Shown in pieces: positions 1 to 19,927 of a stretch of 64,000 bases of DNA (positions are counted from its first letter, which is position 1; the number at the start of each line of letters is the position of its first letter). The stretch spans positions 37,237 to 101,236 of the forward strand of contig DUVH01000015.1 of the NCBI GenBank assembly GCA_012841145.1. The letters run 5' to 3'. The DNA comes from Clostridiaceae bacterium (GTDB lineage: Bacteria > Bacillota > Clostridia > Saccharofermentanales > DTU023). Under the pieces are notes generated by a model. That model saw only the letters and a program-made list of their open reading frames with translations, had not been told where the DNA came from and searched no databases. The translations under genes were made by a program, and so were the position numbers.

Positions 1-1386
1 CGCCTCCGCAAGCTCTTTGACCGTCAGATGTTCAGGCAGAACGACGTGTGTCAACTGGGCAACGGGCCGTTTCGGAGCACTGGCCACGGCTCCATCGCGT
101 TGACGGCGCAGACGTGCACTTCTATCCATCGCTTCCTGCTGCTCGCGACGCATTTGCCTGTCGCGATGTTCCTGATCACGCTGCCTTCCGCGTTCTCTTT
201 GACGTCTCGAGACGGAAGGCGGCGGAGCTTCAGCGAGAGGAGGTTCAACGGGCACGACAGGAACTGCCGACGATTGGCGTCTCGGTCGCGACCTGCGAGC
301 CGTTTGCTCGCGATCGGAAGGCGGTGTCGGAATCGGTGTCGGCGAAGAACGGCGCTCATCGCGCGTCTGCTGTGCGGCAGCTCGCGCAGGACGTCTCCGG
401 TCACTCACCGGGATATCGCGGTCTCTGCCGACATAACTGCCGCGCTGCGGCCTGACAGGACGCCCGTCACTCGTCGTCAAGGGCTTCCTGCGCACGGGCT
501 CCGGCGGCGCGACGGGGTCGGGCGTCGTGATGCGCTCCGTAATCGGCAGCGAGAGTTCCGCAATGCTCCTGCGTTCCCTACGAACCGGTCTGGCAGGCTT
601 TGCGGGCGCAGGTTTGTCCGGTGTTTCTCTCTTAACAGTCTGAACGCGTTTTGCAGGCTCTTTTTTCTTAGGTTTCGCCGTCGCCTTCGCAGAGCGCTTC
701 TCGGCACGGGGAGCTGTCTCTTCCGCAACCACAGCCGCACGAGGAGTCGTTTCACGCTTCGTCGTGAGGTCGCGCGCTTCTGCGGCGGCAGGACGCGCCT
801 CGACAACTTCAGAAGCGGCAGGTATTGCAGCAGGCGCTTTTTCGGTTTCGTCTTTAGTTGTTTCCGGTGTCGAGGGTTTTTCAGGTTTCTTCGCTTCCTC
901 TTTAGGAACTTCGGTCGCCTTGACCTCTTCCTTCGGAGCCTGAACTTTCTCGACGACAGGTGCCGGTTTCTCCGCCTCTTTTTTCTCCTCTGCAACAGGA
1001 GCAACAGGAGTAACAACCGGCGGAGCGACAGGTACAGTCTCAGCCTTCTTAGCTTCCGAAACGGGTTCACTCACGGCAGGCTGCGGTGCGACCTTAGGCT
1101 CCGCCTTGACGGGTTTCGGCTTCTTAACAATCTTAATTACGCCGGGAATGCTTTTACCGGATATGCCCTGTATCTCAATCGTCGAAGGACCGGGGAGGTC
1201 TTTTAACCTCTCATCAGGTGAAGGCTCAACCTTTACAGATTCTTCTTTCTCTTTTTCAGGTTTTTCCGGTATTTCGAGCGTCTCAAGAAAAGCGCGCGCC
1301 TCCAATTCACGGCGCTGTCTCATCGCCTCATCTTCAGTGATATACCCTGCTCTGAGTCCTGAATCTGCTTCTTCACGTTTTGCCAT
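1..1386 (-). CDS. infB: translation initiation factor IF-2, N-terminal part (partial, continues past window start)
   Basis: Absent from the ORF track because it runs off the edge. My minus-strand translation from ATG 1386..1384 gives MAKREEADSGLRAGYITEDE..., then a long K/E/A/P-rich low-complexity linker, and is still in frame at position 1 (...HLTVKELAEA). It lies directly downstream of nusA-ylxR, as in the conserved operon. Confidence 0.85.
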   Translation of the reverse strand, partial: MAKREEADSGLRAGYITEDEAMRQRRELEARAFLETLEIPEKPEKEKEESVKVEPSPDERLKDLPGPSTIEIQGISGKSIPGVIKIVKKPKPVKAEPKVAPQPAVSEPVSEAKKAETVPVAPPVVTPVAPVAEEKKEAEKPAPVVEKVQAPKEEVKATEVPKEEAKKPEKPSTPETTKDETEKAPAAIPAASEVVEARPAAAEARDLTTKRETTPRAAVVAEETAPRAEKRSAKATAKPKKKEPAKRVQTVKRETPDKPAPAKPARPVRRERRSIAELSLPITERITTPDPVAPPEPVRRKPLTTSDGRPVRPQRGSYVGRDRDIPVSDRRRPARAAAQQTRDERRSSPTPIPTPPSDREQTARRSRPRRQSSAVPVVPVEPPLAEAPPPSVSRRQRERGRQRDQEHRDRQMRREQQEAMDRSARLRRQRDGAVASAPKRPVAQLTHVVLPEHLTVKELAEA

Positions 1387-1417
1387 ATTCAGTTCATTCC
1401 TCCCGTCTATCGACGCC

Positions 1418-1771
1418 TTACGGACGATTGCTTCCCGCATTCGCTACGCTGTCCCGTCCTGAGACATCTGAACATGTCGACTCGCCATCGAGAGATGACA
1501 CGTCAGCCACGGCACTTTCAATATCTTTCCAGATCTCCTCCGGAATAGAGCATTTGAGCGCTCTTCGGAGCAAATCTCTTTTTCTCGCTTTTGCGACACA
1601 TTCATGCCGACAACATAAGTAAGCTCCCCTGCCCGGCAGCTTCTGTTCGCTGTCGAGCGCAACGTCTCCGTCCTTCGACGCCGTTACACGCAGGAGTTCG
1701 CGCTGTTCGCGTTTTTCACGACAGGCGATACACGTGCGCAGGGGTTGCCTTTTTTGTCGTCGAGTACTCAA
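1418..1771 (-). CDS. ylxR: YlxR/DUF448-family RNA-binding protein
   Basis: 117 aa. Contains RTCIACREKREQRELLRV and GRGAYLC motifs typical of YlxR. Sits between nusA and infB. Confidence 0.85.
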   Translation of the reverse strand: MSTRRQKRQPLRTCIACREKREQRELLRVTASKDGDVALDSEQKLPGRGAYLCCRHECVAKARKRDLLRRALKCSIPEEIWKDIESAVADVSSLDGESTCSDVSGRDSVANAGSNRP

Positions 1772-1788
1772 ATTATGCCGCCTTCCGA

Positions 1789-3132
1789 CTAACCTTGCAG
1801 GTTATTTTCAACGTCAACCTCGTCCGGATCGTTCTCGTCGAGCGCCTCAATGACACTCTCAATGATGCCCGGAGAGCTCGCAGGCGACGTCATCGACTGT
1901 GACACGCCGTTCAACTCATCGTCGTATTCATCAAAATAATCGTCACCCATCGCCTCTTCGCGCTCCGCCTCGTCAGCGGCAACAGCTTCGTCGAAATCGG
2001 AAATCCAGCTTGCTTCGAGCAATTCGCGATACTGGGTCTCGCTCTTTATGTCTATTTTCCATTCTGTCAACTTAGCGGCTAGGCGAGCGTTCTGGCCTTC
2101 TTTTCCGATCGCGAGTGACAACTGGTGGTCTGCAACGATCACGCGTGCGCTCTGATCTTCTTCATCAAGTACGACACGCATGACACGCGCCGGAGAGAGA
2201 GCGCTGCTGATAAATTCGGCAATATCGGGATCCCACTCGATCACGTCGATTTTCTCGCCATTGAGTTCCGTGATGACTGATTGGACGCGCATACCGCGCT
2301 GACCGACACAGGCTCCGACGGCGTCAATATTTTTATCGTGACTTGTCACGGCCATTTTTGTTCTCGATCCGGCTTCCCTGGCGATACTTACGATCTCCAC
2401 GATTCCAGCGCCGATCTCAGGCACTTCCTGTTCGAACAATCTCCTGACGAGGCCCGGGTGACTTCTCGAGATCATAATCACGGGGCGATGTTCTCGCTGG
2501 TCGACTTTCAGTATGTAGAAACGCATATGTTTTCTAAAAGTATAGTTATCAAGCCGCGACTGCTGATTGTACGGGAGCACCGCTTGAGCGCGCCCGATAT
2601 CCACGAGCACTTCGTTGCGATCACGGCGCTGAACAATACCGCTCGCAAGACCGCCCACACGACCTGAAAACTCCTCGTGAATGCGCATTTTTTCCGCTTG
2701 CGAGAGTTTCTGGTTTATGACGCTCTTGGCAGTCTGTGCCGCAAGGCGTCCGAAGTGTGAAGGATCAACTTCGCGCACGAGCTGGTCACCAAGCTCAAGA
2801 TCGGGCGAAAGCGCATGTGCCTGTTCGAGGGAGAGCTCACTGTTCGGATCCTGAACTTCTTCGACAACCGTCATAGGCTGGTAGACGCGCATCTCGCCGG
2901 TACGACGATCGATATGCGCCGTGATACCGTCACTATCAACGTGTTTCGATTCACTTTCCTGGCCTGCCGTACCTTCTCGCTCACGCGATTTATCGCGATC
3001 TTTCGAGCGAATTTCAAACTCGCGACGATAGGCAGCGACAAGCGCGCCTTCGATCGCTTCAATCAAAGTCTCCATCTCGATACCGCGTTCTTTTTCAAGA
3101 AGCCTCAGTGCCTCAATAAATTCGTGGTTCAT
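1789..3132 (-). CDS. nusA: transcription termination/antitermination factor NusA
   Basis: 447 aa. N-terminus MNHEFIEALRLLEKERGI, S1/KH-like core (GACVGQRGMRVQSVITELNGEKIDVIEW), acidic C-terminal tail. Conserved rimP-nusA synteny. Confidence 0.95.
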   Translation of the reverse strand: MNHEFIEALRLLEKERGIEMETLIEAIEGALVAAYRREFEIRSKDRDKSREREGTAGQESESKHVDSDGITAHIDRRTGEMRVYQPMTVVEEVQDPNSELSLEQAHALSPDLELGDQLVREVDPSHFGRLAAQTAKSVINQKLSQAEKMRIHEEFSGRVGGLASGIVQRRDRNEVLVDIGRAQAVLPYNQQSRLDNYTFRKHMRFYILKVDQREHRPVIMISRSHPGLVRRLFEQEVPEIGAGIVEIVSIAREAGSRTKMAVTSHDKNIDAVGACVGQRGMRVQSVITELNGEKIDVIEWDPDIAEFISSALSPARVMRVVLDEEDQSARVIVADHQLSLAIGKEGQNARLAAKLTEWKIDIKSETQYRELLEASWISDFDEAVAADEAEREEAMGDDYFDEYDDELNGVSQSMTSPASSPGIIESVIEALDENDPDEVDVENNLQG

Positions 3133-3242
3133 TCAATCTCCTTCACCATCGCTATCCTGATCTTACGAGCGGTCGGTAAATCTTCCACATCGATCAATCA
3201 GCACACTTTTGTCTGTCCGACAGACAAAGTTCAAGCCCTATA

Positions 3243-3707
3243 CTAGAAAACAATCTCGCGCTTTATATTCGCGATTTGTTCCAAATCAAAAAGCACCCGC
3301 TCTCCGCCTTCCGCTTCTACACCGACACGATCTCCGTCAACGATAAGATGACCGAACAACCGCTTTTCTCCGTCGATAGCACGATAAAGGCTTAATCTGA
3401 CGTAAGCTCCCTCATGTCGGATGAAATCATCCATCGTCTTTAACGGCCTGTCAATCCCGGGCGACGAGACTTCAAAAGTGTCAAAATCATCAAGCCCGAG
3501 TTCATCAGAGATGATGGGGTCGGCAAGCTCGCTCAGCGACTCGCAATCCTCGATTCCGACACCGCCGCGCTTATCGATCACCAAACGGAGAATGTTCCTG
3601 CCATTCTCATGTACGTAAATCACGTCAAGCAAATCGAGGTCGAGCGACTTCGCTACGGGCGTGATCGCCTCGACAATGCGGAGTATATTTGTTTTTCTTG
3701 AACGCAT
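3243..3707 (-). CDS. rimP: ribosome maturation factor RimP
   Basis: The track ORF extends to 3851. The internal ATG at 3707 (MRSRKTNILRIVEAITPVAKSLDLDLLDV...) is preceded by AGGAGA at 3711..3719 (minus) and matches the usual RimP length and N-terminus. Confidence 0.85.
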   Translation of the reverse strand: MRSRKTNILRIVEAITPVAKSLDLDLLDVIYVHENGRNILRLVIDKRGGVGIEDCESLSELADPIISDELGLDDFDTFEVSSPGIDRPLKTMDDFIRHEGAYVRLSLYRAIDGEKRLFGHLIVDGDRVGVEAEGGERVLFDLEQIANIKREIVF

Positions 3708-3909
3708 ATCAATTCTCCTATACCGCACGCGATCGACCATTACATACAAAAGAGCGGACCACCCCGCTCTTTCAACCCGATACACGCTGTGTTTCTTAAT
3801 TATAACAGGTTTATCAACACGGTCAAGCGCCTGTGCGCCGTCAGTCTCCACCGCTTTACGAAACTTGCGCTACTCCCCATACAAAACCGAAAAACGGCCA
3901 GTTGCCCTA

Positions 3910-3986: not shown

Positions 3987-4041
3987 GATTAACGACGGTC
4001 AAAGATCATTGTACAGAAAAATGATCTCCCGGTCATCCCGC

Positions 4042-4200
4042 GTGTACAATTTTTCAATTAATTACGAATTATTGTACTCAGCAGCGGCAGGACTCTCCGA
4101 GAGCCCCTCACACGTGTACAGTTTTTCAATTAATATCGAATTTCTGCACTTTACGCCCAGAGTCCGGCACCCCGGGAATTTTGCAACTAATATCGATTTT
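4042..4200. repeat. three degenerate tandem copies (~71 and ~63 bp spacing) of a GTGTACA(A/G)TTTTTCAATTAAT(T/A)(A/T)CGAATT core
   Basis: Copies at 4042-4070 and 4113-4141, plus a diverged copy at 4174-4200. The periodic peptide of track ORF 4009..4278 (YNFSINYELLYS / YSFSINIEFLHF / NFATNIDFLDI) is only a reflection of this repeat. Confidence 0.7.
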
Positions 4201-4276
4201 TTGGATATTTTGCTTGGGAGGACTAAGCTTCGCATATTTTCTAATGGATCATTTTCAGAAAAACTTCACCATGTTT

Positions 4277-4307
4277 AAGGGGGCCCTCTCTTTGAGAAAG
4301 CCCCCTT
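4277..4307 (-). terminator. hairpin just downstream of the cyclase gene (possible operon terminator)
   Basis: AAGGGGGC (4277-4284) pairs with GCCCCCTT (4300-4307). There is no clean U-run on the minus strand, so the call is weak. Confidence 0.35.
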
Positions 4308-4352
4308 CCAGTGAACATTAAGCTAACGAAAAACGTTTAACCGCGATCGAGA

Positions 4353-5156
4353 TTACTCCACCGTGTCGAATGCGACGCAGCGGCAGAAGGCCGATTCACC
4401 ATACTGGAACTTCCACGGGAACGTTCCGAGGATCATGCGCTTGTTCTTAGGCACGATGTCGATTTCGCCGCCGAGACATTCAACGTGAATGATTTCCCAA
4501 GGCTGCGGGAAGACCCAGATGTGCATCGCTTGATACGTATCGGGCCATTTGTAGATCTCATTGAGTCCTTTGCCATAGCGCTCTCTCATAAACGCATCAC
4601 AACGCTCTGCTTCAAGAGGCTCCCAGTCACGGATTTTCGTATTCATCGGATGGTCGGCGGAGCCGGCATCGACAGCGATGTACTTGAGTTCCATTTCCTT
4701 CATCCAGTCGGGGAAATCGACTGAAGGACCGGGGTGACGAAGCATATAACGGCGCTCATCCGGCGTTTCCCCATCTAACGAATATTTGTGGTAACCCGTG
4801 TAGATGAAGATGATGTCGCCCTTGCGGATGTCCGCACGATCCATGAGATCTTGAGGCGTGTAGATCGACCAGTCTTCCGCGATATCGGAGATATCGACGA
4901 CGACGCCCGGTCCGACGAGTTTTTCCATCTCGAGCGATGCGATATCGCGTCCGCCCGTGTCAAAATGCTGCGGGCCGTCGAGGTGTGTTCCGACGTGGTT
5001 TGACGTCGTGATAATCATGCCGTTCGCCCCGTTAGGCGCCAAACGCTTGAAATATTTGACGTTCAAGGGCTCATAAGTCGGCCACGGAGGCGTCATATGA
5101 TTTGTGTTCAGTGTCAAGTCATACACTTTGATTTTGTCCCAATTTTTGAGTAACAT
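4353..5156 (-). CDS. cyclase-family metal-dependent hydrolase (kynurenine formamidase / isatin hydrolase-like)
   Basis: 267 aa. Carries the family signature HxGTHxDxPxH as HVGTHLDGPQHF. Last gene of the PucR-led minus-strand operon. Confidence 0.75.
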   Translation of the reverse strand: MLLKNWDKIKVYDLTLNTNHMTPPWPTYEPLNVKYFKRLAPNGANGMIITTSNHVGTHLDGPQHFDTGGRDIASLEMEKLVGPGVVVDISDIAEDWSIYTPQDLMDRADIRKGDIIFIYTGYHKYSLDGETPDERRYMLRHPGPSVDFPDWMKEMELKYIAVDAGSADHPMNTKIRDWEPLEAERCDAFMRERYGKGLNEIYKWPDTYQAMHIWVFPQPWEIIHVECLGGEIDIVPKNKRMILGTFPWKFQYGESAFCRCVAFDTVE

Positions 5157-5262
5157 AAAGCAATTCCTTTCATTCTTTACTTTTCAGGTTAGTAAAGCCT
5201 CTATTCTTTTCCGCCCTGTTATTGAAACGGGCGTACCTTCCTATTTGTTGCCGTTATCAGGC

Positions 5263-6525
5263 TCAGCCCAGCATTCCCTCGCTCTCGAGAAGCTCGACAT
5301 ACGCCTCTAAAGCGTCGGTAAAGCACTTCATCGGAGGATTGACGATACCAGCTCCCACCTGTCCGATACCGGCTCGTTTATGGGCGATACCAGTATTGAT
5401 GACGGGGAGGATTTGCGTCTCGACGACGAGACGAATATCGATACCTGTCGGTGTTCCGCGGAAATTCATCGTCGGCATCTTATAGATCACGCTCTCCTCA
5501 AGTGTAATCTCGTACATGCTCGTCGTGTAATTGACCGCGTCCTGCGGAGTTCCCCCGACGAACTGCACGATCGCGGGCGCCGTCGCCATAGCGAAACCGC
5601 CGATACCGTACGTCTCCGTAATGCAAGAGTCGCCGATGTCGGGGTTGGCATCGTCCGTGCTGTAGCCCGGGAAGTATAGACCGTCGATGATTGCGGCGGG
5701 ACCCGTGAACCAGCGGTCTCCGAGAGCGGCGACTCTGATGCCGAATTCCGTTCCGTTGCGCGCCATAGTGTAAACGATTGTCGAATGCTTAACTTTTCCG
5801 ACGGGATCCATCGCTGACTTGGCTGCCGGCATCGAGAGATTCAGGAAGAAGTGGTCGTTCGAATTCAGGAAATCGAAGACAGCAACTTGATCTTCTTTCG
5901 ATGCGTCTGTTTTGACGATGCTTGATGCAATCTCGCGGATAAACAGCGATGTCGCAGCTTTGTTGCGGTTGTGCACTTCATCGCCCATCTGAGCCGCTTG
6001 CGCGATCATGCTCTTGAGATCCAATGGACCGTAGATCTCCAACGTTTGCTTCATGATAGGATAGAGCGTTTTTTCCATCCATTTCAAATGCTTGATAACA
6101 TCTTCGCCATATGCACCGAAACGAAGGACGTTGCCGAGCCCCTCATTCATCGTGCAGTATGCAAAGTTGCCTTGTGCCTTGTTCTCAATGATAAAGACCG
6201 GCATCGATGCCGTTACGACACCCGCCATCGGTCCCACAGCCTGATGATGGTGGCAAGGATCGAATTCAATTTCGCCCGAAGCTGCAAGCTTCTCCGCCTC
6301 TTCCGGCGTCGCCGCAAGACCCTCATAGATCAGTCCGCCGATTACGGCACCGCGGAGCGGCCCAGACATCTTCTCCCACGTGATGGGAGGACCGGCGTGC
6401 ATGACGAGTTTCTTGTGCATGCCCGGAACAACATCTTTTGCTACGCCCATACCAACGAGTGTCGGCTGCGCATTCTGCATGATTTCCAGTGCTTTCCTGT
6501 TGGCGGCCTCAATAAAATTTGCCAT
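5263..6525 (-). CDS. DUF1116 (YlbE-like) protein
   Basis: 420 aa. Its sequence (AGPPITWEKMSGPLRGAVIGGLIYEG, DPCHHHQAVGPMAGV) and its position next to FdrA match the fdrA-ylbE-ylbF association known from E. coli. Confidence 0.75.
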   Translation of the reverse strand: MANFIEAANRKALEIMQNAQPTLVGMGVAKDVVPGMHKKLVMHAGPPITWEKMSGPLRGAVIGGLIYEGLAATPEEAEKLAASGEIEFDPCHHHQAVGPMAGVVTASMPVFIIENKAQGNFAYCTMNEGLGNVLRFGAYGEDVIKHLKWMEKTLYPIMKQTLEIYGPLDLKSMIAQAAQMGDEVHNRNKAATSLFIREIASSIVKTDASKEDQVAVFDFLNSNDHFFLNLSMPAAKSAMDPVGKVKHSTIVYTMARNGTEFGIRVAALGDRWFTGPAAIIDGLYFPGYSTDDANPDIGDSCITETYGIGGFAMATAPAIVQFVGGTPQDAVNYTTSMYEITLEESVIYKMPTMNFRGTPTGIDIRLVVETQILPVINTGIAHKRAGIGQVGAGIVNPPMKCFTDALEAYVELLESEGMLG

Positions 6526-6630
6526 AAATCCCTTCTTTCTCTAACTTGTGCCTTTCCGTAAGACGACACATTCCTCTTATTCAAACTTAAAACCTGCGCG
6601 CTGCATGGCAGAGTACAGGTTTATAAACCT

Positions 6631-6804
6631 CTATAACCCTTTCAGTCTGCCGAGCAGTGATGCCATTTTTTTGTCACCGCCGGCGGCTGGTTTCCAATCG
6701 ACGTGGATTGTTCCCACATCCTGACTGCGCAGCTCTTCGTAAAAAGATTCGAGCCCCATGTTGATCACTTTCAACTCCCGTTTAAATAGTTCGTTGACTG
6801 ACAT
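6631..6804 (-). CDS. small ORF (57 aa) between fdrA and the DUF1116 gene, below the ORF-track cutoff
   Basis: My translation is MSVNELFKRELKVINMGLESFYEELRSQDVGTIHVDWKPAAGGDKKMASLLGRLKGL*. A GGAGGAG RBS lies 7-8 nt upstream, and the ORF starts 15 nt after the fdrA stop. Confidence 0.6.
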   Translation of the reverse strand: MSVNELFKRELKVINMGLESFYEELRSQDVGTIHVDWKPAAGGDKKMASLLGRLKGL

Positions 6805-6819
6805 ATCGCTTTCTCCTCC

Positions 6820-8373
6820 TTATGCGCTGACTTTTTCCATGATGAGATCGACAAGCCTGACCGCTTGCGCATTGGAAGGCATGACGATGACGCCTGCCTG
6901 TTCAAGACTTGCAATCGACTGATCGAGACCCTGGGGATCTTTATCCGTTCCCGTCACGGAAGCTACGACGACGAGATCTTTGCCTTCTGCCTTCAAGCGC
7001 TCGCGCGCTTCCGAGACCGATGCGGCGACAGCGCCGGCGGGGTTCTCGTGCGCCCCGTAGCCGATCACGACATCGCAGAGCACCACGGCTGTCGAGCTGT
7101 TGACGTGCGTCTTGAAGAAATCCGCTCTCGTCAAGGGATCGATCATCGGGTGCGGTCTGCCGCGTGTGAACTCGTCTTCTCCGAGATCGAGACAGATATG
7201 ACCGTTCAGACCTTCCAGATTCGCCAAGGCTCGGTCAGGCGTGAGCGGGATATTTGAATAGATCGGATAATGGTCTCCCAAATACTTGATCGCTTCGTCG
7301 GCGAGCGTTCCGCCCGTGTAAAGCGCACGCAAATATTTCTGACCTGCCGATAGTTTTGCCGCTGAGCCCGAAACGAGCTTTTCGATCTCCTCTTCTGACG
7401 CATCAAAACCGTCAAAATCCACAACTTTTTCACCGCGCAGTAATGCTACGGCTTTGCGAGCGGCGTCTTCCAAGCTTAAGCAAGGCGTTGCGCCGGCATC
7501 GACAATAGAAGCGGCGTCGCCTCCGATAAAATCGATGACGACGGGTTTGTCCGCCTGTTTCACCAAGTCGATGATCTTCTTTTCGACGGTAGGGTGAGGA
7601 GGCTTAGAAACGAGCACGATGACTTCCGTCTCAGGATCGTTCAGCAGCGCTTCAATACCCTGAATCATCATCAGTCCGCCGATCTCCTCGCGCAGGTCGC
7701 GACCGCCCGTACCTATGACTTGCGAGAGTCCCTCGCCGAGCTGATCGATGCGCACGGTGATCTCCTGCGTGCCTGTCCCCGAAGCGCCTACGAGACCGAT
7801 TTTCCCTCTCGATACAACGTTGGCGAAACATAGAGGGACACCGTTGATGATCGCCGTCCCGCAATCGGGTCCCATCATCAAAAGTCCCTTTTCTACTGCC
7901 ATCTTTTTCAGCCGGAGTTCATCGTTGATCGATACGTTATCCGAAAACATCATGACGTGGAGTCCAGCTCTAAGAGCTGTCTCCGCCTCTTCCGCGGCAT
8001 ACTGGCCGGGGATTGAGATCTGGACAAGGTTAGCGCCCTCGAGGTGATCGATCGCCGAACGGAGCGTCGGCGGTCGATAATCGCCAGCCGATGCGTCCTT
8101 TTTACGGTTAATCTGCTCCTCGAAAGACTCGACAAGCTGTTCCATCGTGACGAACTCTTCGTTGAACTTTGCCGCGATGAAGAGATCGTTCGGCGTAATA
8201 CTTTCGAGATTTGCGTCGAACATGTTGAGATTACGAACGAGATCTAAATTCAGATCAGTACCCATTCCGACGAGGACTTCCTCGACGCCTTCGATTGATT
8301 TCATTTCGCGAGAAATCAACATCAACGTTACAGAGTCGTAATAAGCATTTTTTCTTACTATACTTTGAATCAT
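6820..8373 (-). CDS. fdrA: FdrA-family protein (succinyl-CoA-synthetase-like / acyl-CoA synthetase fold)
   Basis: The track ORF extends to 8445. The ATG at 8373 (MIQSIVRKNAYYDSVTLML...) has an AAGGAGG RBS and forms an ATGA overlap with the stop of the upstream gene. Contains CoA-ligase-like motifs (GPDCGTAIINGVPLCFANVV, GLVGASGTGTQE). Confidence 0.85.
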   Translation of the reverse strand: MIQSIVRKNAYYDSVTLMLISREMKSIEGVEEVLVGMGTDLNLDLVRNLNMFDANLESITPNDLFIAAKFNEEFVTMEQLVESFEEQINRKKDASAGDYRPPTLRSAIDHLEGANLVQISIPGQYAAEEAETALRAGLHVMMFSDNVSINDELRLKKMAVEKGLLMMGPDCGTAIINGVPLCFANVVSRGKIGLVGASGTGTQEITVRIDQLGEGLSQVIGTGGRDLREEIGGLMMIQGIEALLNDPETEVIVLVSKPPHPTVEKKIIDLVKQADKPVVIDFIGGDAASIVDAGATPCLSLEDAARKAVALLRGEKVVDFDGFDASEEEIEKLVSGSAAKLSAGQKYLRALYTGGTLADEAIKYLGDHYPIYSNIPLTPDRALANLEGLNGHICLDLGEDEFTRGRPHPMIDPLTRADFFKTHVNSSTAVVLCDVVIGYGAHENPAGAVAASVSEARERLKAEGKDLVVVASVTGTDKDPQGLDQSIASLEQAGVIVMPSNAQAVRLVDLIMEKVSA

Positions 8374-9344
8374 ATACGATCCTCCTTTTTTACTATACAC
8401 TCCTCCTGCCGCGCCCAGCGCGAAAATATTGTCTGAATACACCAAACCCCGAACAGAAAATCCGCTCCGGATGTCGCACCGAACTCCAACACGCGCTCAA
8501 TCGCGCGATGAAGTTCGGGGATGTTCTGCGTTGCCAATGCATCTAATACCTTAAGATAACTGCAGCTCGCTTTCCCCCTTGATGCGTGTTTGAGCATTGA
8601 ATAGCTCACGATTGTCGTTCTCGATCTCGCGAGATCAACAACGTCATGCAAAAAATTCAACAAGGCATGATCATCACTGTGATTCCACAGGTTCCTGTAG
8701 TAAAGGGACAAAATAAACGCCGCAAGAAAATCATCGCACGAAGGTGTCAGCCCCGGCCCAAAACCGATGAGCAGCTCAGCTCTGCTAAGCGACAAGTCCC
8801 AATTTTTCCCCTCAACAGCTTCCAGAAATGAACAAATATCTCCCGTAATAAAACGCGCATAGATATTCGTGCACGAAGAAGGCTCGTTCGAGTCACCGTC
8901 AATGAAACGAATGACCGACGCAACACCGCCGGAGTCGAGTTCCAGTAAAGTCTTTTTGATCAAATCGAGCATTTCTTTGCTCGCACAGGTTACTTCTCCT
9001 GAGGGTACCGCAAGTTCCGGACTCCATACACGCGCATTTCGAAACCTGATGCGACTTTCGCTGTTCGGTAAGACAAACTCCATCTGTCCCCCATATAACA
9101 CGCTGTCATCATTTTCAAAAGGCCAGGCAGCGTGTGAAGACAAATCAACGATCATACCCATCGGCATTATGTCAAGATCGGTTCTGGCGATCGTCGCCAA
9201 TTCTTTATCCGGCGACAACAGATTGACAGCACCGCGAAAGATTGAGTGAACGCGAAATACAACATCGTCTCGCTGAAGCAGGAAATCATAGAGATCTTGC
9301 GACATCTGCAAAACACTGATCGTTCGCTCGAATCTTCCCGCCAT
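8370..9344 (-). CDS. DUF2877 (YlbF-like) protein
   Basis: ~324 aa. Start is ATG 9344 (or GTG 9347), sharing one base with the PucR stop (TGATG). Its stop overlaps the fdrA start (ATGA). The family call rests on my recollection of the sequence and on synteny with fdrA/DUF1116. Confidence 0.65.
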   Translation of the reverse strand: MAGRFERTISVLQMSQDLYDFLLQRDDVVFRVHSIFRGAVNLLSPDKELATIARTDLDIMPMGMIVDLSSHAAWPFENDDSVLYGGQMEFVLPNSESRIRFRNARVWSPELAVPSGEVTCASKEMLDLIKKTLLELDSGGVASVIRFIDGDSNEPSSCTNIYARFITGDICSFLEAVEGKNWDLSLSRAELLIGFGPGLTPSCDDFLAAFILSLYYRNLWNHSDDHALLNFLHDVVDLARSRTTIVSYSMLKHASRGKASCSYLKVLDALATQNIPELHRAIERVLEFGATSGADFLFGVWCIQTIFSRWARQEECIVKKEDRI

Positions 9345-11029
9345 CACCGAATAAGCTCCTTTATCCGAATCGCCAGTTGTATATTGAACGCCGTTTCAGG
9401 ATCTCGCAGATCAATCCCGTAAACATCGCGAATCCTGTTGATCCGATAAATAATCGTGTTGTAGTGCGTAAACAATATCTCCGACACGCGTTTCAAGTTA
9501 CCGCCGGAAGCGAAATAAACGCGCACTGTTTCGAGCAGATCGCCGTGCTGCCTGTGATCGTGTTCTTCAAGCGGATTAAGGATTTCATCCGCATAGGCAA
9601 GCGCCTCATCTCTGAGGAGCGGGTGTCCCAACACACGAAGCAATCCCAGATCATCGTAATAGAGAACGGGGTTATCCCTTTCCTGTCGGCTCATCAGTAT
9701 GCGAACAGTCTGCTCCGCCTGTTGTAAACTCATCGGCAAAGAGCGAAACGTCTCGACGCACGAACCGACTCCGATGAAAGTATAATCAAGCACGCCTTTC
9801 TCATCGATGCACTTGATCAGCGTATCGATAAATCGTTGCGCATCAGCCTCCCGCCTCTCGGATGTACACTCTTTATCAAACTGCAAGAGAAAGACGGCGC
9901 GATCACTTTTTCGCGTCACGAGAAAGTAGCCGTCGTACTCCTGCTTCAAGCGATTTGTGAGGTTTAAGAGATTCGTGTTGAGGTTCTTGGCCATGCGTGC
10001 GTTATTGGGCGTCAGCTGATACTGCCTATTCTGTTCCATCATGAGCACGACGCATTGGCTTGGAAGATCAGGATGAAACAGATAAAAATCGGCATTCTCG
10101 AGCGCTTTGTTCTGTTCTTCCCGATCATCACTGAGCAGCTGCTCGAGAAAGGTAGTCTGATGGACATTTTCTCGCTCTACGAGCGTAATACGATTTAAGA
10201 TATCAAGAGCGATCAGCGACGTAGCCGACTCGATCACGAATAAATCCTGCACGCGAATCACATTTTCCGTATCCCACAGATAGATGCTTCCGTAGTGCAT
10301 ATTGTCAAAGTAGATGGGAATCGCAAATCGTTTGACGGAATGCTCTGTCACGATCGACTCGCTGATACGCATATCGGGAGCTTGCGGGTAACGTCTTGAG
10401 AAAGCATTGGCCATCACATCCTTCAAATCATCCTCGATCATCGCCTCTTTATCACGATCCAGACAATAAAAGTGAACATCGCGGAAAATGTCATCACAGA
10501 TAGCGACGGGCACTCGAACGGAACGGTAGATCTGTTCTGCGATCGCTTTCATACCGCCATGACGCAACATGATATTGCGCACTTTCGAATTGAAATCATT
10601 GATATGACCCAGCAATTTAGTCTGCTCACCGATGATCCTGTTGAAAATCTCTTTAATCAGATCCCCATAGGGTACTGCTTGAGGAATTCTAATGATGGGG
10701 AACGAGATCTCATCGGCAATTTTCAGCACATTTTCAGGCACCTCGCTGATGTATCTCTGCGTCTTAATCCCCATTCCACAAACTTGTCGCTCCTTCAACT
10801 GAGGGATAAGGCGCTCAAATGCCCCAATATCACGACTGAACGTATACGCCGTCGTCAAAAGGAATTCACCGGGACGAACCCAGTCGACAATATCGGGAAC
10901 TTCAAGAACATTGACAGAGACAATCCTGTTGGTCAGACCGTCTTTCCCTGCCAACACTTCAGCATCTTTCAACAAACTGACTTGTAGAATATCTTTTAAT
11001 TCAATCATAAGTTTGTGATCGTTAGGCAT
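9344..11029 (-). CDS. PucR-family transcriptional regulator (purine catabolism regulator-like)
   Basis: 561 aa. Has the N-terminal PucR-type sensory region and the C-terminal PucR helix-turn-helix (LKRVSEILFTHYNTIIYRINRIRDVYGIDL). First gene of the operon. Confidence 0.8.
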   Translation of the reverse strand: MPNDHKLMIELKDILQVSLLKDAEVLAGKDGLTNRIVSVNVLEVPDIVDWVRPGEFLLTTAYTFSRDIGAFERLIPQLKERQVCGMGIKTQRYISEVPENVLKIADEISFPIIRIPQAVPYGDLIKEIFNRIIGEQTKLLGHINDFNSKVRNIMLRHGGMKAIAEQIYRSVRVPVAICDDIFRDVHFYCLDRDKEAMIEDDLKDVMANAFSRRYPQAPDMRISESIVTEHSVKRFAIPIYFDNMHYGSIYLWDTENVIRVQDLFVIESATSLIALDILNRITLVERENVHQTTFLEQLLSDDREEQNKALENADFYLFHPDLPSQCVVLMMEQNRQYQLTPNNARMAKNLNTNLLNLTNRLKQEYDGYFLVTRKSDRAVFLLQFDKECTSERREADAQRFIDTLIKCIDEKGVLDYTFIGVGSCVETFRSLPMSLQQAEQTVRILMSRQERDNPVLYYDDLGLLRVLGHPLLRDEALAYADEILNPLEEHDHRQHGDLLETVRVYFASGGNLKRVSEILFTHYNTIIYRINRIRDVYGIDLRDPETAFNIQLAIRIKELIR

Positions 11030-11559
11030 GATTTGTACTCCAGATCTATTTTATACGAATTCGACAGAAAATGATTTAGTTTTAAATAACAATGTCAAAA
11101 ATATTATATCACAGTCATGTGTGAAATTAGCACAGATTTTTATCATTAATTAACAATCTTCTTGCATAAAGTGATTGGTTTTTGAATTTTCATTTTAGTG
11201 ATTATTTATAATTAGACTCAAATTAAAAGAATAAGAACAAATCAAATGCCTCAAACGGCAGCGCCGCCGTATCTTGCACTTACGAAATGGCCGCATCGCA
11301 ATTATAACTCGAATCGCACAAAAAAACAGACGTGAATATCATCGTATTTGTTGATTGATACCAAATCTAAGTCAGAGAACTCTAATAACTTGTACCCAGT
11401 AACAAGGTTCTATTCCAATAAACGTGTTAAAATTGGTAATATCGAACTAGTATTGGTGGCTATATCGTCCGGATAGTCAGTTTCCTGACGGATAAACATC
11501 AATAAGAAAACGGCTCGAATTCAATCCGAAGAGAAAGTCTTTATCGCAAGGAGGTTTCT
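11030..11559. promoter_or_regulatory. 530-bp AT-rich divergent control region between the PucR operon and the Mo-hydroxylase operon
   Basis: Visibly much more AT-rich than the flanking coding DNA. I saw no credible ORF in it. It contains short hairpins (e.g. GTCAGtttcCTGAC near 11478-11491). It must hold both divergent promoters. Confidence 0.6.
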
Positions 11560-12411
11560 GTGCTAAGTCAATTTGATTATGTCAAACCGCTTGTTCTGGA
11601 TGAGGCGCTCGCAGCTCTTGCAAAGGAAGATGATTCCTATGTATTGGCAGGAGGTACTGACCTCCTGATCATGTTGCGCCACAATCTGATCAATGCCCGC
11701 CACATCATTGACATCAAGGGCATCCCCGAACTGAATGAACTTTGTTTTATTGAGAACGAAGGCCTGACGATCGGCGCCAATGTGGTGGTAAACGCGCTCG
11801 TTGACTCGGAGCTCGTCAAGAACAAGTACAAAGCATTACATGACGCCGCCTCATGTCTCGCGTCGTTTCAATTGAGAAACAGAGCGACACTTGTCGGCAA
11901 CATTTGTAATGCCTCACCCGGGGCAGACCTGCCCCCCGCACTTCTAATCTATGACGCCGTCGTCAAGATCGCGAGCGTTGACGGAGTGCGAGAAGTTCCG
12001 CTCGTAGAATTCTTTACAGGTGTCAAGAAAACAGTCCTGTCAGATGAAGAGCTCGTCATCTCCGTCTTCCTGCCCGATCCGGGCGAGAATGACTCAAGCT
12101 GCTATATGCGTCAGACACGCCTCAAGGGGCACGACCTCTCGACCGTAGGCGTCGCGTGCCGGCTGGACGGAGAAGGTAAAGTCTCCGTCGCCATCGGTGC
12201 CGTCGCGACCACACCGCTCAGGCTGACCGCGTTGGAAGCCGAGATCAATCAGAGAGGCATCTCCGAGGAGACAATTTTGTGGGCGTCGAATGCCATCAAC
12301 GATCACATTAAACCGATCTCAGACGTACGCGCATCAGAAGCTTACCGCCGCCATATGGCGTCAGTTCTTCTGAAACGATGCCTAGTGACATTGACAGGCA
12401 AGGAGGTATAA
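11560..12411 (+). CDS. molybdenum hydroxylase FAD-binding subunit (CoxM/XdhB-like)
   Basis: 283 aa, GTG start after AGGAGG. Shows the FAD-binding PCMH-type pattern (LAGGTDLLIMLR) and a CO-dehydrogenase flavoprotein C-terminal region (DVRASEAYRRHMA). Confidence 0.85.
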   Translation: MLSQFDYVKPLVLDEALAALAKEDDSYVLAGGTDLLIMLRHNLINARHIIDIKGIPELNELCFIENEGLTIGANVVVNALVDSELVKNKYKALHDAASCLASFQLRNRATLVGNICNASPGADLPPALLIYDAVVKIASVDGVREVPLVEFFTGVKKTVLSDEELVISVFLPDPGENDSSCYMRQTRLKGHDLSTVGVACRLDGEGKVSVAIGAVATTPLRLTALEAEINQRGISEETILWASNAINDHIKPISDVRASEAYRRHMASVLLKRCLVTLTGKEV

Positions 12412-12414
12412 AAC

Positions 12415-12972
12415 ATGACAGTCGCAGAATTGAAACATGACGAAAAAGGTTGTGCCATGGAGACGGCGCATATCAGTTCGGCAAGAGAATCTCGTGTTGT
12501 CATTGACCTTGTCGTCAACGGAGAGCGCGTAATCGAAGAAATCGAACCGAACATGCTCTTGCTCCACTTTTTGCGTGACAAGCTGAAGCTTTTCGGCGCA
12601 AAAGAATCGTGCGGAGAAGGTGAATGCGGCGCATGCACCGTTCTGATGAACGGCTACGCCGTTACGTCCTGTCTCGTCCTAGCTATTGAGGCGAACGGCG
12701 CTGAGATACTCACCGTTGAGGGCCTTTCCAAAGGAAATGAACTCAGCATTCTCCAGCAGGAATTCGTGTTCCAGGATGCGCTCCAATGCGGTTTCTGCAC
12801 ACCGGGCATGCTGATGTCGGCGCGCGGACTCCTCGACAAGAACCCCGATCCGACCGATGAAGAGATTCGCGAGGCAATGGCAGGCAACCTCTGTCGTTGC
12901 ACCGGGTATCTCCAGATCTTCGATGCGGTCAAACGGGCTGCCGAGCGCGAGAGAGAAGAGAGAGAGGAGTAG
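12415..12972 (+). CDS. molybdenum hydroxylase [2Fe-2S] subunit (CoxS/XdhC-type iron-sulfur subunit)
   Basis: 185 aa. Two cluster motifs are present: CGEGECGACTV and CGFCTPGM...CRCTGY. It has a ~28 aa N-terminal extension relative to typical small subunits (alternative start at the internal METAH...). Confidence 0.9.
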   Translation: MTVAELKHDEKGCAMETAHISSARESRVVIDLVVNGERVIEEIEPNMLLLHFLRDKLKLFGAKESCGEGECGACTVLMNGYAVTSCLVLAIEANGAEILTVEGLSKGNELSILQQEFVFQDALQCGFCTPGMLMSARGLLDKNPDPTDEEIREAMAGNLCRCTGYLQIFDAVKRAAEREREEREE

Positions 12973-12979
12973 GATACTC

Positions 12980-15394
12980 ATGTCAAATCTTTGTCAATTA
13001 GAAAACTTTGAATACAGTTGCTGCAGGGATTACGAGTCTAAGTACAAGCATGTGGGACAACCCTACGTCAGGAAAGATGCCGTCGAAAAGGTGACGGGTC
13101 AGGCAACGTATACGGTCGACATGGAACTGCCCGGTATGCTACACGCGAAGACTCTGCACTCACCTTATGCTAGAGCGAGAATTGTCTCGATCGATATGAG
13201 CAAGGCAAGAGCGCTCTATGGCGTCAAAGCCTGTCTGTGCGGTGAAGATGCCAATACAAAAGTCGGTCTTTACATGCAGGATAAGATGGTCTTTGCCAGC
13301 GGTGAAACGCGCTATCAAGGTGAAGTCGTCGCCGCCGTCGCCGCCACAACGGAAGCGATCGCGGAGCGCGCCATTTCTCTCATCGAAGTCGAATATGAAG
13401 TGCTCGAACCGGTGATCAATGTCGACCAGGCGCTTGAAGCGAAGACACTCGTCCACCCGGACATCAATACGATACAACATACTGTGGGCGTCTTCTTCCC
13501 GCAACCCGATACCAACATCGCTAGCCTCAATACGAGCCGCCGCGGCAGCCTCGTAAAGGGTTTCGAGGAAGCCGATCTCATCGTCGAGAACGAATTCTCG
13601 TTACCTGCCGTCGCACACGTTCCTCTTGAAACACACGTGACGATTGTCGAAGCTGATCCTTACACCGATAAAATCCGTATATGGTCCTCAGCGCAATCAC
13701 CGTTCGCCTTGAGACAGATGATGGCGGCCGCATTCGACATTAAGGAATCCGATATTGAAGTTCATATTCCTTACGTCGGCGGAGCTTTCGGAGGAAAAGC
13801 CGGCATCCACCTCGAGCCGTTGGTCACCTTGTTGTCGAAAGCTGCAGGTGGAGTTCCCGTCAAGCTGCGCATGACGCGTGAGCAGGAATTCAATTACATG
13901 CCAACACGCGCCGGCATGCGCGGCAGGATCAAGTCGGGTGTAACGAAGGACGGCCAGATCACTGCAACCGAAATCGTGTACGACTGGGACAGCGGCGCAT
14001 ACGCTGACTACGGAGTCAACGTCGGAAAGACTGCCGTTTACGGCGGTCTCGGCCCTTACGACATTCCAAATGCGAGCATCGTCTCGAACACAATTTACAC
14101 GAACAAAGTCTTCAGCACAGCGTACCGCGGTTTTGGTCACCTCGAGACTCTCTGGACAGTGGAACGTCAAACCGATATCCTCTCACAGAAACTCGGGATC
14201 GATCCTTATGAATTCCGCATGATGAATTTGTTGAAGCCGGGATCAAAGACAATCACAGAGGAAACCATCACGGAGAGCTCCGGTAGTCCTTGCGACTGCT
14301 TGTCCGCCGTCGTCAAAGAAATCGGATGGACCGGACGCAAGACACAGGAAGAACGCGAGAAAGAGTGGAAAACAGGTAAGGTTCGCGGCAAGGGTTTCGC
14401 CATGATCCAAAAGGCGCCGGCGATGCCTGCTAATACGGCCACATCCGTCATCATGCAGATGGCTGGGGACGGGCACGTCAATATCATGATGGGAGCCGTC
14501 GACTACGGGCAGGGCGCGCTCACGGCGCTCGCTCAGATCGCGGCGCAAGAGCTCGATATCCCGTTTGACATGGTCAAGGTCATTCCGCAAACCAATACGG
14601 AGACCAATCCATACGACTGGAACACCGTGGCGTCTAAGCTCACATTCATGGCGGGCAATGCCGTCATTCAAGCAAGCCGTAACATGGTCGCCCAGTTGAA
14701 AGACGTCGCGGCTCGCGCTCTGCGCTGCTCACCCGACGTGTTGGCGCATGCTGACGGTTACATTTACAAAAAGCACATGCCGGAAATCCGTATTGCTTAC
14801 AAGGACATGGCACTCGGTTATGCTTATCCGGACGGCATGGGAATCGGCGGCCCGATCATTTCGCACGGCGTTTGCATGGCGGACGGTCTGACGAACCTCG
14901 ACCCGAAATCGGGTAAAGGCTTCCCTGCCCTCGCATGGACATTCGGCGCACACGCCGTCGAGATTGAACTTGACGTCGAAAGCGGAAACATCGATATCCT
15001 GAAAGTCGCTTCGGCGTTCGACATCGGACAAGTCATCAACGAAAGAATGGTCTACAGCCAAGTCGTCGGCGGCGTCATGCAGGGAATCGGATCTGCGATC
15101 CTCGAAGGGTACAAATTCAGTCCCGACAATGTGTTGCTGAACCCCTCGTTCACCGATAACAAGATCCCGACGATGAAAGATATGCCGTTCGAGGTCGTCC
15201 CGATCTACATCGAGAATCCTCAGTTAAACGGCCCATACGGTGCCCGCGGTATTGCGGAACACACGATGATCTCCGTTCCCTCCGCGATCGGCAATGCTCT
15301 CTATGAGGCGACAGGCATCAACTTCTATCGTCTGCCGCTCACACCGGAGAACGTCATGCTGGGTATTCTGTCAGGCAAAAAAGACATTAAATAA
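12980..15394 (+). CDS. molybdenum hydroxylase molybdopterin-binding large subunit (xanthine dehydrogenase / aldehyde oxidase family)
   Basis: The track ORF starts at 12857 inside the FeS gene. The ATG at 12980 follows GAGAGAGGAG and gives MSNLCQLENF...VGQPYVRKDAVEKVTGQATYTVD, a typical a/b-hammerhead start. About 804 aa. Substrate cannot be inferred. Confidence 0.85.
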   Translation: MSNLCQLENFEYSCCRDYESKYKHVGQPYVRKDAVEKVTGQATYTVDMELPGMLHAKTLHSPYARARIVSIDMSKARALYGVKACLCGEDANTKVGLYMQDKMVFASGETRYQGEVVAAVAATTEAIAERAISLIEVEYEVLEPVINVDQALEAKTLVHPDINTIQHTVGVFFPQPDTNIASLNTSRRGSLVKGFEEADLIVENEFSLPAVAHVPLETHVTIVEADPYTDKIRIWSSAQSPFALRQMMAAAFDIKESDIEVHIPYVGGAFGGKAGIHLEPLVTLLSKAAGGVPVKLRMTREQEFNYMPTRAGMRGRIKSGVTKDGQITATEIVYDWDSGAYADYGVNVGKTAVYGGLGPYDIPNASIVSNTIYTNKVFSTAYRGFGHLETLWTVERQTDILSQKLGIDPYEFRMMNLLKPGSKTITEETITESSGSPCDCLSAVVKEIGWTGRKTQEEREKEWKTGKVRGKGFAMIQKAPAMPANTATSVIMQMAGDGHVNIMMGAVDYGQGALTALAQIAAQELDIPFDMVKVIPQTNTETNPYDWNTVASKLTFMAGNAVIQASRNMVAQLKDVAARALRCSPDVLAHADGYIYKKHMPEIRIAYKDMALGYAYPDGMGIGGPIISHGVCMADGLTNLDPKSGKGFPALAWTFGAHAVEIELDVESGNIDILKVASAFDIGQVINERMVYSQVVGGVMQGIGSAILEGYKFSPDNVLLNPSFTDNKIPTMKDMPFEVVPIYIENPQLNGPYGARGIAEHTMISVPSAIGNALYEATGINFYRLPLTPENVMLGILSGKKDIK

Positions 15395-15464: not shown

Positions 15465-16001
15465 TTATGTCGTTCCGGTCTTATCCGAAAAAGGGGTTAA
15501 GCGATACGCAAGAAACCATGCGGTAACAGCCTTGAGAGCATCTCCCGGTAAAAATACAACCATCCCTGTCATGAGGATATTCCCAAAAGTTATTGTTTGA
15601 TTCAGATAGAAACGAAGAACCAAAGCCATGTACGGCAAACCTAAAATGTAGATTAGAAACGTAACGGCGGCAATATTAAGCGCCGTCCGGACACAGTTCC
15701 CTTTGTTTCTTTGCGTCAAAAAGGAAAGGAGCGGTGACGCGACCACAAAAGCGAGAACAAAACCGAAGCCGGGCGAAACGAAAGGCGATGAACCGCCTAG
15801 GATAATCTTCAAAAACGCATGGAGCAGCATAGCCAAACATGACGTAGCCGGTTTCAGAAGAAGTCCTGCCATAAGTACAGCGAGTGTCTGCAGCGTGATG
15901 GGAACAGGCCCGACAGGTATTCTGATAAAACCGAACACAAACGTCAGCACGCCGAACAAAGCGGCGTACGTCATCATTCTTGTCGTCACTTTCACCTTCA
16001 T
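15465..16001 (-). CDS. bioY: biotin transporter S-component BioY
   Basis: 178 aa, multi-pass membrane protein. BioY-like sequence (IRIPVGPVPITLQTLAVLMAGLLL). Adjacent to birA. Confidence 0.85.
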   Translation of the reverse strand: MKVKVTTRMMTYAALFGVLTFVFGFIRIPVGPVPITLQTLAVLMAGLLLKPATSCLAMLLHAFLKIILGGSSPFVSPGFGFVLAFVVASPLLSFLTQRNKGNCVRTALNIAAVTFLIYILGLPYMALVLRFYLNQTITFGNILMTGMVVFLPGDALKAVTAWFLAYRLTPFSDKTGTT

Positions 16002-16058
16002 TATTCAACCTCAGCCCCGCGACATAATACATAGTCGGTGTCGGTTATATAAAGAAAA

Positions 16059-17069: not shown

Positions 17070-17201
17070 ATTAATGAAAGTTTACCATAAATACGCACTG
17101 ACAATACTTAGCGACATCCTCTCTAACATGACAAATGCGTAACAATACTTTTGAAGTCACCTCTTTCTATAGCTAGGTCGATTACGTCAAAAGATATGAC
17201 G

Positions 17202-19918: not shown

Positions 19919-19927
19919 AGAATGCTC

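Follow-up and report, generated by a model that had tools for sequence, protein, structure and literature searches.

In a 64,000-nucleotide (nt) stretch of contig DUVH01000015.1 from a Clostridiaceae bacterium (hereafter the window, whose positions serve as coordinates throughout), the minus strand from position 11029 to 4353 is a compact same-strand operon of six genes, which encode a PucR-family regulator, the three subunits of an AllFGH-type enzyme, a 57-amino acid (aa) protein that is the detached C-terminal tail of AllF, and a cyclase-family hydrolase. The allF-tail-allG-cyclase part of this operon is a conserved module that recurs across about 20 bacterial phyla, mostly in anaerobes. Together with the adjoining genes of a molybdenum (Mo) hydroxylase of the xanthine dehydrogenase (XDH) family, it forms an island that we propose, with a probability of about 0.5, to serve the oxygen-independent oxidative catabolism of uracil, and also of cytosine and possibly thymine; the gene content was observed directly, and the reactions that would take uracil to acetyl-CoA are read from gene context. 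The searchable literature, beyond whose reach most subscription journals lie, contained no description of the cluster, and as far as it goes the AllFGH-cyclase-Mo-hydroxylase island is undescribed.

The conservation of the module was assessed by using an AllG alignment to scan the representative genomes of GTDB and by surveying the best 80 of at least 597 relatives (57-75% AllG identity; loci are designated below by L numbers). Synteny was analyzed by tblastn and by de novo clustering of the open reading frames (ORFs) of the 80 loci, 69 of which had enough flanking sequence for the presence of the cyclase gene to be scored and 39 of which were long, with 8 kb or more on either side. The earlier note on this DNA had left it to a survey of other genomes whether the cyclase gene keeps its place after DUF1116 (allG), and it clearly does, since it lay directly 3' of allG in 64 of the 69 testable loci and in 38 of the 39 long ones. 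The lineages concerned include Chloroflexota, Bacillota, Spirochaetota, Thermotogota, Cloacimonadota, Verrucomicrobiota, Elusimicrobia, and Riflebacteria.

Among the long loci, a three-subunit XDH-family Mo hydroxylase was found in 27, an NCS2 permease in 21, an amidase-signature amidase in 11, a family III CoA-transferase in nine, and a CN-hydrolase in four. In Alkaliphilus metalliredigens QYMF, a single strand carries the three XDH-type genes, the permease, PucR, AllH, AllF, a 56-aa ORF, AllG, the cyclase, a CN-hydrolase, and a CoA-transferase. Six metagenome assemblies (L001-L006), at least one of them labelled as a biogas fermenter, showed the same gene order as the window and an AllG that was 100% identical. 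A further arrangement was seen in L072 (Bacterium D16-56, a Clostridia isolate from mouse gut), where allF, a tail-allG fusion, a carbamate kinase gene, and an amidase gene whose product is 68% identical to that of the window lie at 8258-13682, with the cyclase, a permease, and a cytosine-deaminase-like gene a few kb beyond; it was the sole surveyed locus to combine a carbamate kinase directly after allG with the cyclase.

In the window, the first gene of the operon (9344-11029, 561 aa) encodes a regulator with an N-terminal PucR domain (PF07905, 119 bits), a C-terminal HTH_30 domain (PF13556, 75 bits), and a GGDEF_2 domain, which places it in the PucR family. It is followed by the genes for AllH (DUF2877; 8370-9344, 324 aa; PF11392, 84.5 bits), for an AllF (FdrA) body that lacks the C-terminal tail of its family (6820-8373, 517 aa; NF004760, 512.6 bits for a cut-off of 433), for the 57-aa protein (6631-6804), for AllG (DUF1116; 5263-6525, 420 aa; PF06545, 336.9 bits), and for the cyclase-family, metal-dependent amidohydrolase with the isatin hydrolase/kynurenine formamidase fold (4353-5156, 267 aa; PF04199, 111.9 bits). 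All six genes begin with ATG and contain no internal stop. The TGA of pucR (9346-9344) and the ATG of allH (9344-9342) have one A in common (TGATG, a 1-nt overlap), the TGA of allH (8372-8370) and the ATG of allF (8373-8371) overlap by 4 nt (ATGA), and the 57-aa ORF starts 15 nt past the TAA of allF behind a GGAGGAG Shine-Dalgarno sequence.

These three junctions had been described in the earlier note and were exact on the minus strand, and each of its domain calls was matched by Pfam and NCBIfam. It was silent on the gaps of 105 nt between the 57-aa ORF and allG and of 106 nt between allG and the cyclase gene, on the identity of the 57-aa ORF, on the divergent Mo hydroxylase, and on the malonate decarboxylase/amidase operon considered below. 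Its interpretation stood in part: the operon is a unit in which a cyclase gene takes the place of carbamate kinase, but neither an unusual coupling of the regulator nor a biochemically undefined AllF/AllG/AllH triad could be upheld.

The 57-aa ORF aligned with positions 508-555 of the 555-position NCBIfam FdrA model (E 1.3e-11) and was 51% identical to residues 511-555 of Escherichia coli AllF (BLASTP); it is a detached module that elsewhere forms the C-terminal tail of AllF or the N-terminal tail of AllG. In a frame-aware survey, 77 of the related loci could be scored, as could the window and E. coli (79 in all). The tail was joined to the N-terminal end of AllG in 57 of these and was free-standing in 17, whereas three loci encoded an AllF-tail-AllG fusion as a single ORF of ~1040 aa (L033, L052, and L088; about 8078-11245), and in two, one of them E. 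coli, it was fused to AllF. The motif LF....L.V[VI]N.GLESF...L..QG...V.VDW.PPAGGD....L..L was common to all forms.

It could be argued that the 57-aa ORF is merely debris left when a nonsense mutation interrupted fdrA in frame, and that the enzyme of the window is decaying, as the ORF lies in the frame of allF and is separated from it only by the TAA and five codons. This idea is effectively refuted. Free tails occurred in 16 other loci (57-75% AllG identity), each of the free-standing tails had its own ATG, a Shine-Dalgarno-like sequence, and a length of 56-67 codons, and 13 of the 17 were out of the allF frame. The proportion of non-synonymous differences (pN, 0.2-0.3) was far below that of synonymous differences (pS, ~0.8 or higher and saturated), and the identical split was present in the six independent metagenome assemblies. 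A search of 1.84 billion cluster representatives gave 541 matches, and among the best 150 of the 541, 63 were no longer than 72 aa, 61 of which begin with methionine, and six proteins of 560-663 aa carried the module at their C-terminus. With its own start signals, the differing frames, a pN well below pS, and many short forms in the database, the 57-aa ORF is a real and selected micro-protein, even though it is in frame with allF in the window.

Since the tail is attached now to one neighbour and now to the other, and in some loci links the two, AllF and AllG may bind each other through it, and the peptide would then dock AllF to AllG, in agreement with the co-purification of the E. coli proteins. 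We know of no solved structure of the AllF-AllG complex. The wandering tail offers a natural fusion/fission ("Rosetta-stone") clue to how this complex is assembled, and the ~1040-aa fusion ORFs would be handy natural constructs for structural work on it.

The enzyme itself is better characterized than the earlier note had assumed when it called the triad poorly defined. AllF, AllG, and AllH of E. coli were purified by Kim and Kim in 2024 and shown to be an oxamate carbamoyltransferase (oxamic transcarbamylase), which catalyzes the reaction oxalurate + inorganic phosphate (Pi) <-> oxamate + carbamoyl phosphate, and the E. coli allFGHK operon (fdrA-ylbE-ylbF-ybcF) also encodes a catabolic carbamate kinase (PMC11326118). 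Pfam now gives DUF1116 and DUF2877 the names AllG and AllH. The AllF of the window covers positions 1-493 of the 555 of NF004760, is 38% identical to residues 1-497 of E. coli AllF, and is related to PDB 3DMY, and the AllG is 46% identical to E. coli YlbE and matches PDB 3CLQ at E 4e-125. For AllH, the AlphaFold2 (AF2) model (predicted local distance difference test, pLDDT, 91.6) comprises an N-terminal beta-barrel and an all-alpha domain, and GxGPGLTPSxDD and GATSGxD are invariant; a comparison with the PDB gave no relative by sequence and no fold match at E up to 0.001. In several phyla, allH adjoins the XDH-type genes instead of allF. As the earlier note had reported, no carbamate kinase or transcarbamylase was found among the Pfam-annotated called genes (~1-63 kb of the window), and the presence of a cyclase gene instead does depart from the E. 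coli arrangement. An amino-acid-kinase gene was likewise absent from this range.

The cyclase belongs to family PF04199 by score, metal motif, and fold. Its metal ligands H54-x3-H58-x-D60-x3-H64 (HxGTHxDxPxH) were invariant in 27 orthologues, as were H224 and E226. The best PDB folds for its AF2 model (pLDDT 81) were Mn-dependent isatin hydrolases (Foldseek E ~3e-11, template modelling (TM) score ~0.63, identity ~20%), then kynurenine formamidases (KynB). The arylformamidase equivalog TIGR03035 gave only 46.5 bits for a cut-off of 223, and this over the N-terminal 80 residues alone. A role of the cyclase as ring opener is supported by the model, whose closest structural counterparts are isatin hydrolases, themselves ring-opening enzymes, and by the intact set of metal ligands. 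The orthologues form a tight group (59-97% identity) whose members are labelled just "cyclase family protein" or "kynurenine formamidase" in databases. In one of the six metagenome assemblies (L001, 11600-12100), the gene appears split into ORFs of 47 and 73 aa; a genuine disruption was rejected and an assembly error is most likely, because the break consists of small indels in G/C runs of an assembly with ~4x coverage.

Divergently from pucR, the plus strand carries the three-subunit Mo hydroxylase (11560-15394), with genes for the FAD subunit (11560-12411; FAD_binding_5/CO_deh_flav_C), the 2Fe-2S subunit (12415-12972; Fer2_2), and the Mo subunit (12980-15394; Ald_Xan_dh_C/MoCoBD), and its orthologues in related clusters are 60-73% identical. 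Converging on these genes, a complete-looking minus-strand operon (15465-23929) encodes a putative Na+-translocating malonate/malonyl-CoA decarboxylase with beta, biotin carrier, and gamma subunits, an MmdA-like carboxyltransferase, and MdcA (18755-23929), then an amidase-signature amidase (17202-18680, 492 aa; a generic amidase by NCBIfam) and, 3' of the amidase and in the same direction, birA and bioY for a biotin ligase/repressor and a biotin transporter (15465-17069; BPL_LplA_LipB with HTH_11, and BioY). MdcA exceeded the cut-off of its equivalog (TIGR01110, 807 bits for 789), and the MmdA-like carboxyltransferase reached 856 bits, below the cut-off of 999; TIGR01109 was matched with 476 bits (cut-off 191). 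The MdcA/MadA-type equivalog, the carboxyltransferase, the biotin carrier, and the membrane beta subunit expected of a biotin-dependent Na+-translocating malonate decarboxylase are all present. The amidase gene lies directly downstream of the decarboxylase genes, co-directional with them and ~6 kb from the AllFGH operon.

In the known aerobic route, uracil is converted to barbiturate, then to 3-oxo-3-ureidopropanoate (ureidomalonate), and finally to urea and malonate (PMC3758960). Ureidomalonate is the E. coli AllFGH substrate oxalurate with one CH2 more. From this known barbiturate route and this one-carbon difference, we infer a pathway of five steps. The Mo hydroxylase would oxidize uracil to barbiturate, which the cyclase-fold hydrolase, in the place of barbiturase, would open to ureidomalonate. 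AllH, AllF, the tail, and AllG would then cleave ureidomalonate with Pi to carbamoyl phosphate and malonamate, and a carbamate kinase encoded at another site could use the carbamoyl phosphate to make ATP. The amidase encoded at 17202-18680, a proposed malonamate amidase, would release malonate and NH3. In the fifth step, MdcA and the Na+-pumping carboxyltransferase/decarboxylase would convert malonate, via a malonyl thioester, to acetyl-CoA (or an acetyl thioester) and CO2, with export of Na+.

Several features of the clusters bear on the nature of the substrate. Nine of ten sampled cluster permeases were UraA-like, this being the best among the specific models, and three of them exceeded the cut-off of the uracil-permease equivalog; the tenth, in L055, was PbuX-like. 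Cytosine-deaminase-like amidohydrolases were encoded in or beside several clusters, including that of the sister lineage L091. Both are pointers to a pyrimidine substrate, and xanthine or urate appears less likely because the permeases are UraA-like. After the cyclase gene, two non-homologous amide hydrolases (amidase-signature and CN-hydrolase) recur, followed by a dicarboxylate-type CoA-transferase, and this position suggests that a short amide is formed and then turned into a dicarboxylate. The window has no such CoA-transferase, and there MdcA and the co-operonic amidase are pointers to malonate, as are the orthologues of this amidase (48-68% identity) inside the AllFG-cyclase clusters of L072, L011, L010, and L013 and a carboxyltransferase gene that abuts allF in L083.

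A rather unlikely, though by no means negligible, alternative is that the module strips the carbamoyl group from the ureido intermediate of another N-heterocycle (a ureide derived from xanthine or urate, a hydantoin, or a modified pyrimidine), the malonate operon being an unrelated neighbour. The PbuX-like permease of L055 and the 8-oxoguanine-deaminase-like genes in Lachnospiraceae clusters would fit such a substrate, the hydroxylase gives no readable indication of its own, and the adjacency of the malonate genes in the window only, as well as thiolase/DUF35 neighbours that a uracil scheme does not explain, are in its favour. The predominance of UraA-type permeases speaks against it, as do the amide hydrolases and dicarboxylate CoA-transferases that recur after the cyclase and the orthologues of the window amidase inside clusters elsewhere.

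The operon could also encode a true oxamate carbamoyltransferase, with the hydroxylase and cyclase making oxalurate from a purine- or hydantoin-type ring (e.g., parabanate), and with oxamate converted to oxalate and activated by an Frc/YfdE-like CoA-transferase. Oxalurate is the substrate of the sole assayed member of the family, the regulator is of the purine-catabolism (PucR) family, and the family III CoA-transferases of the clusters scored best or near-best with CoA:oxalate CoA-transferase models (369-380 bits), although below the cut-off of 522. We nevertheless consider this possibility unlikely. When E. coli AllB, AllC, AllE, and AllD were compared by tblastn with the 80 loci, just two weak matches to generic AllB-type amidohydrolases were obtained, and none of these genes was present in the window annotation; no oxalyl-CoA decarboxylase was noticed among the annotated neighbouring gene families. 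Nine of the ten sampled permeases are of the uracil rather than the xanthine type, cytosine-deaminase-like genes are linked to the clusters, and the amidase of the window is paired with the malonate-specific MdcA. Furthermore, there is no plausible route from a nucleobase to oxalurate by a Mo hydroxylase and one hydrolase alone.

A number of observations weigh against the uracil pathway. Its substrate assignments are drawn from gene context. The Mo subunit fell below every curated equivalog cut-off, including those of xanthine dehydrogenase proper (XdhA and PucD), the best being NF043082 with 466.8 bits for a cut-off of 780, so that its substrate is not readable from sequence, and the best PDB relative of the hydroxylase is 4-hydroxybenzoyl-CoA reductase. 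The cyclase could be a linear amidase instead of a ring opener. The window annotation includes no nucleobase permease, cytosine deaminase, or carbamate kinase, and carbamate kinase was encoded within 10 kb in just six of the 39 long loci. MdcA adjoins the cluster in the window only, and carboxyltransferases were found in just two other loci; the CoA-transferases are about as similar to oxalate CoA-transferases as to any other characterized type, which would also suit an oxalurate/oxamate/oxalate route. Finally, the commonest of the alternative neighbours, a thiolase and DUF35 pair in 15 of the 39 long loci, has no clear place in the scheme; in 12 cases a 224-245-aa protein accompanied the pair. 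This trio of a thiolase-like protein (Thiolase_C_1), a DUF35/ChsH2 zinc-ribbon protein, and the third protein, for which no Pfam or NCBIfam match was obtained, lies 3' of the cyclase gene or 5' of allH, for example in L024 (12168-14370) and in L030, L033, L052, L061, L062, L067, L068, L088, and others.

The downstream genes in L022, L075, and L087 were checked for decarboxylase parts and proved to be unrelated.

With regard to regulation, PucR may act on the 530-bp intergenic region that separates its gene from those of the hydroxylase and activate transcription in both directions, that of its own operon and that of the divergent hydroxylase genes. A promoter-like extended -10 element, TGATATAAT, lies on the minus strand at 11103-11111, ~75 nt upstream of the pucR ATG. 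The sister lineage L091 has retained it, as TGGTATAAT, within an intergenic region that has otherwise diverged, which is consistent with a promoter function. The element is flanked by an AT-rich 19-nt direct repeat, TTTAGTTTTAAATAACAAT and TTTATCATTAATTAACAAT, at 11075-11093 and 11139-11157, 64 nt apart, and this repeat may serve as an operator or simply reflect chance in DNA of such composition. The Bacillus subtilis-type PucR box WWWCNTTGGTTAA, allowing up to two mismatches, matched the window 13 times for 19.5 matches expected, with one weak match at 11141-11153. A generic scan for promoters and terminators showed no excess over shuffled sequences (10 vs 8.8 and 7 vs 7.6, respectively), and an Rfam scan of 4000-11700 (E up to 1) detected neither a riboswitch nor a leader.

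After the cyclase gene, a GC-rich, terminator-like hairpin with a 14-bp stem lies on the minus strand at 4277-4308. This region folds at -33.6 kcal/mol (z = -2.8 relative to shuffles), and the hairpin, which lacks a clean U-tract, probably ends the operon. Hairpins in the two ~105-nt intergenic gaps were no better than those of shuffled sequences (z = -0.6 and -0.9).

The earlier note had regarded a transcription factor translationally coupled to the enzymes presumably under its control as unusual; on that view, a special regulatory design would be the notable feature of the operon. The 1-nt overlap of pucR and allH is genuine and has a 4-nt counterpart in the sister lineage L091. However, overlaps of 1 nt (35575) and 14 nt occur in an operon for an energy-coupling factor (ECF) transporter in the same window, and 4-nt overlaps in unrelated operons. 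A same-strand PucR gene ahead of allH was found only in the window, in L091 and L090, and in five of the 80 surveyed loci (L011, L014, L015, L016, and L084), and outside the window and L091 these PucR-first loci had gaps of roughly 20-230 nt instead of an overlap. Most phyla either have no PucR in the cluster, carry its gene divergently, or have a GntR or LysR-type regulator in its stead. Together with the lack of enrichment of the PucR box, these results make a special regulatory design highly improbable; as overlaps recur in the window and PucR-first loci are few, regulator-first coupling is a local and unremarkable layout of a few lineages.

On the chromosome, rimP-nusA-infB lie directly downstream of the operon (1-3851), and the glycine-cleavage genes gcvT/H/P, a fab cluster for fatty-acid synthesis with a MarR regulator, and hrcA-grpE-dnaK lie within 28541-32974, 43055-48451, and 51347-55058, respectively. 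With housekeeping genes all around it, the island is embedded in the core chromosome.

Three routes of pyrimidine breakdown are established in bacteria, namely the reductive route, the Rut pathway, and a rare aerobic oxidative route. The reductive and oxidative routes are covered in PMC3758960. If the uracil pathway proposed here is correct, a fourth, energy-conserving route would exist in about 20 phyla of anaerobes, and the annotation of nucleobase turnover would change for metagenomes from the gut, from sediment, and from biogas digesters like those that contain the sequence of this contig. AllFGH, a family that was given an activity only in 2024, would acquire a second physiological role, and a function would be assigned to the large protein group that carries only the labels "cyclase family protein" or "kynurenine formamidase". 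A broader view, which we put forward a little more tentatively, is that of a widespread O2-independent oxidative pyrimidine pathway with allF-tail-allG-cyclase and the Mo hydroxylase as its core, in which AllFGH-type enzymes would be general acylurea phosphorylases with a portable ~50-aa docking peptide, and uracil would provide both ATP and a Na+ gradient. As several cultured and sequenced isolates carry the cluster, among them A. metalliredigens QYMF, A. transvaalensis ATCC 700919, Clostridium bowmanii DSM 14206, and Anaerocolumna aminovalerica DSM 1283, the hypothesis is testable now.

Compared with the E. coli allFGHK system, the window has all three subunits in one operon (AllF 38% and AllG 46% identical, AllH of the same Pfam family) and presumably the same chemistry, the phosphorolysis of an N-acylurea to carbamoyl phosphate and an amide. 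It differs in its gene order (H-F-tail-G instead of F-G-H), in its separate 57-aa AllF tail, and in its partner gene, a cyclase-family hydrolase instead of the carbamate kinase AllK. The neighbours are also different, with a Mo hydroxylase, PucR, and an amidase/malonate decarboxylase operon and without allantoin genes nearby, and the proposed substrate would be ureidomalonate rather than oxalurate. With the purine-catabolism regulon of B. subtilis PucR, the island shares the regulator family and a likely link to nucleobase catabolism that includes an XDH-family enzyme, but here the regulator gene heads the operon of the enzymes, the B. subtilis-type box is not enriched, and the substrate is likely a pyrimidine rather than a purine.

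The cyclase resembles isatin hydrolases and kynurenine formamidases (PF04199) in its fold and intact HxGTHxDxPxH metal site, and departs from them in its low identity (~20%), its distinct and highly conserved C-terminal half, and its fixed synteny with allG. Na+-translocating malonate and methylmalonyl-CoA decarboxylases are known from Malonomonas rubra (Mad) and from Veillonella and Propionigenium (Mmd). The window set has the same MdcA/MadA-type transferase, carboxyltransferase, biotin carrier, and membrane beta and gamma subunits, to which it adds a co-directional amidase, birA, and bioY beside the AllFGH/Mo-hydroxylase island.

The closest metabolic parallel to the proposed pathway is the oxidative pyrimidine pathway of Rhodococcus and a few other aerobes, which uses uracil/thymine dehydrogenase, barbiturase, and ureidomalonase (Soong et al. 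2001, 2002, as summarised in PMC3758960). The route proposed here would share its intermediates, from uracil through barbiturate and 3-oxo-3-ureidopropanoate to malonate. The ring opener here would have the cyclase/isatin-hydrolase fold and would not be a barbiturase of the AtzD family, which was absent from the annotated genes of the window, L090, and L091, no search aimed at it having been made in the other loci. Whereas the Rhodococcus pathway hydrolyzes ureidomalonate to urea and malonate, the enzymes described here, in hosts that are mostly anaerobes, would cleave it by phosphorolysis to carbamoyl phosphate and malonamate.

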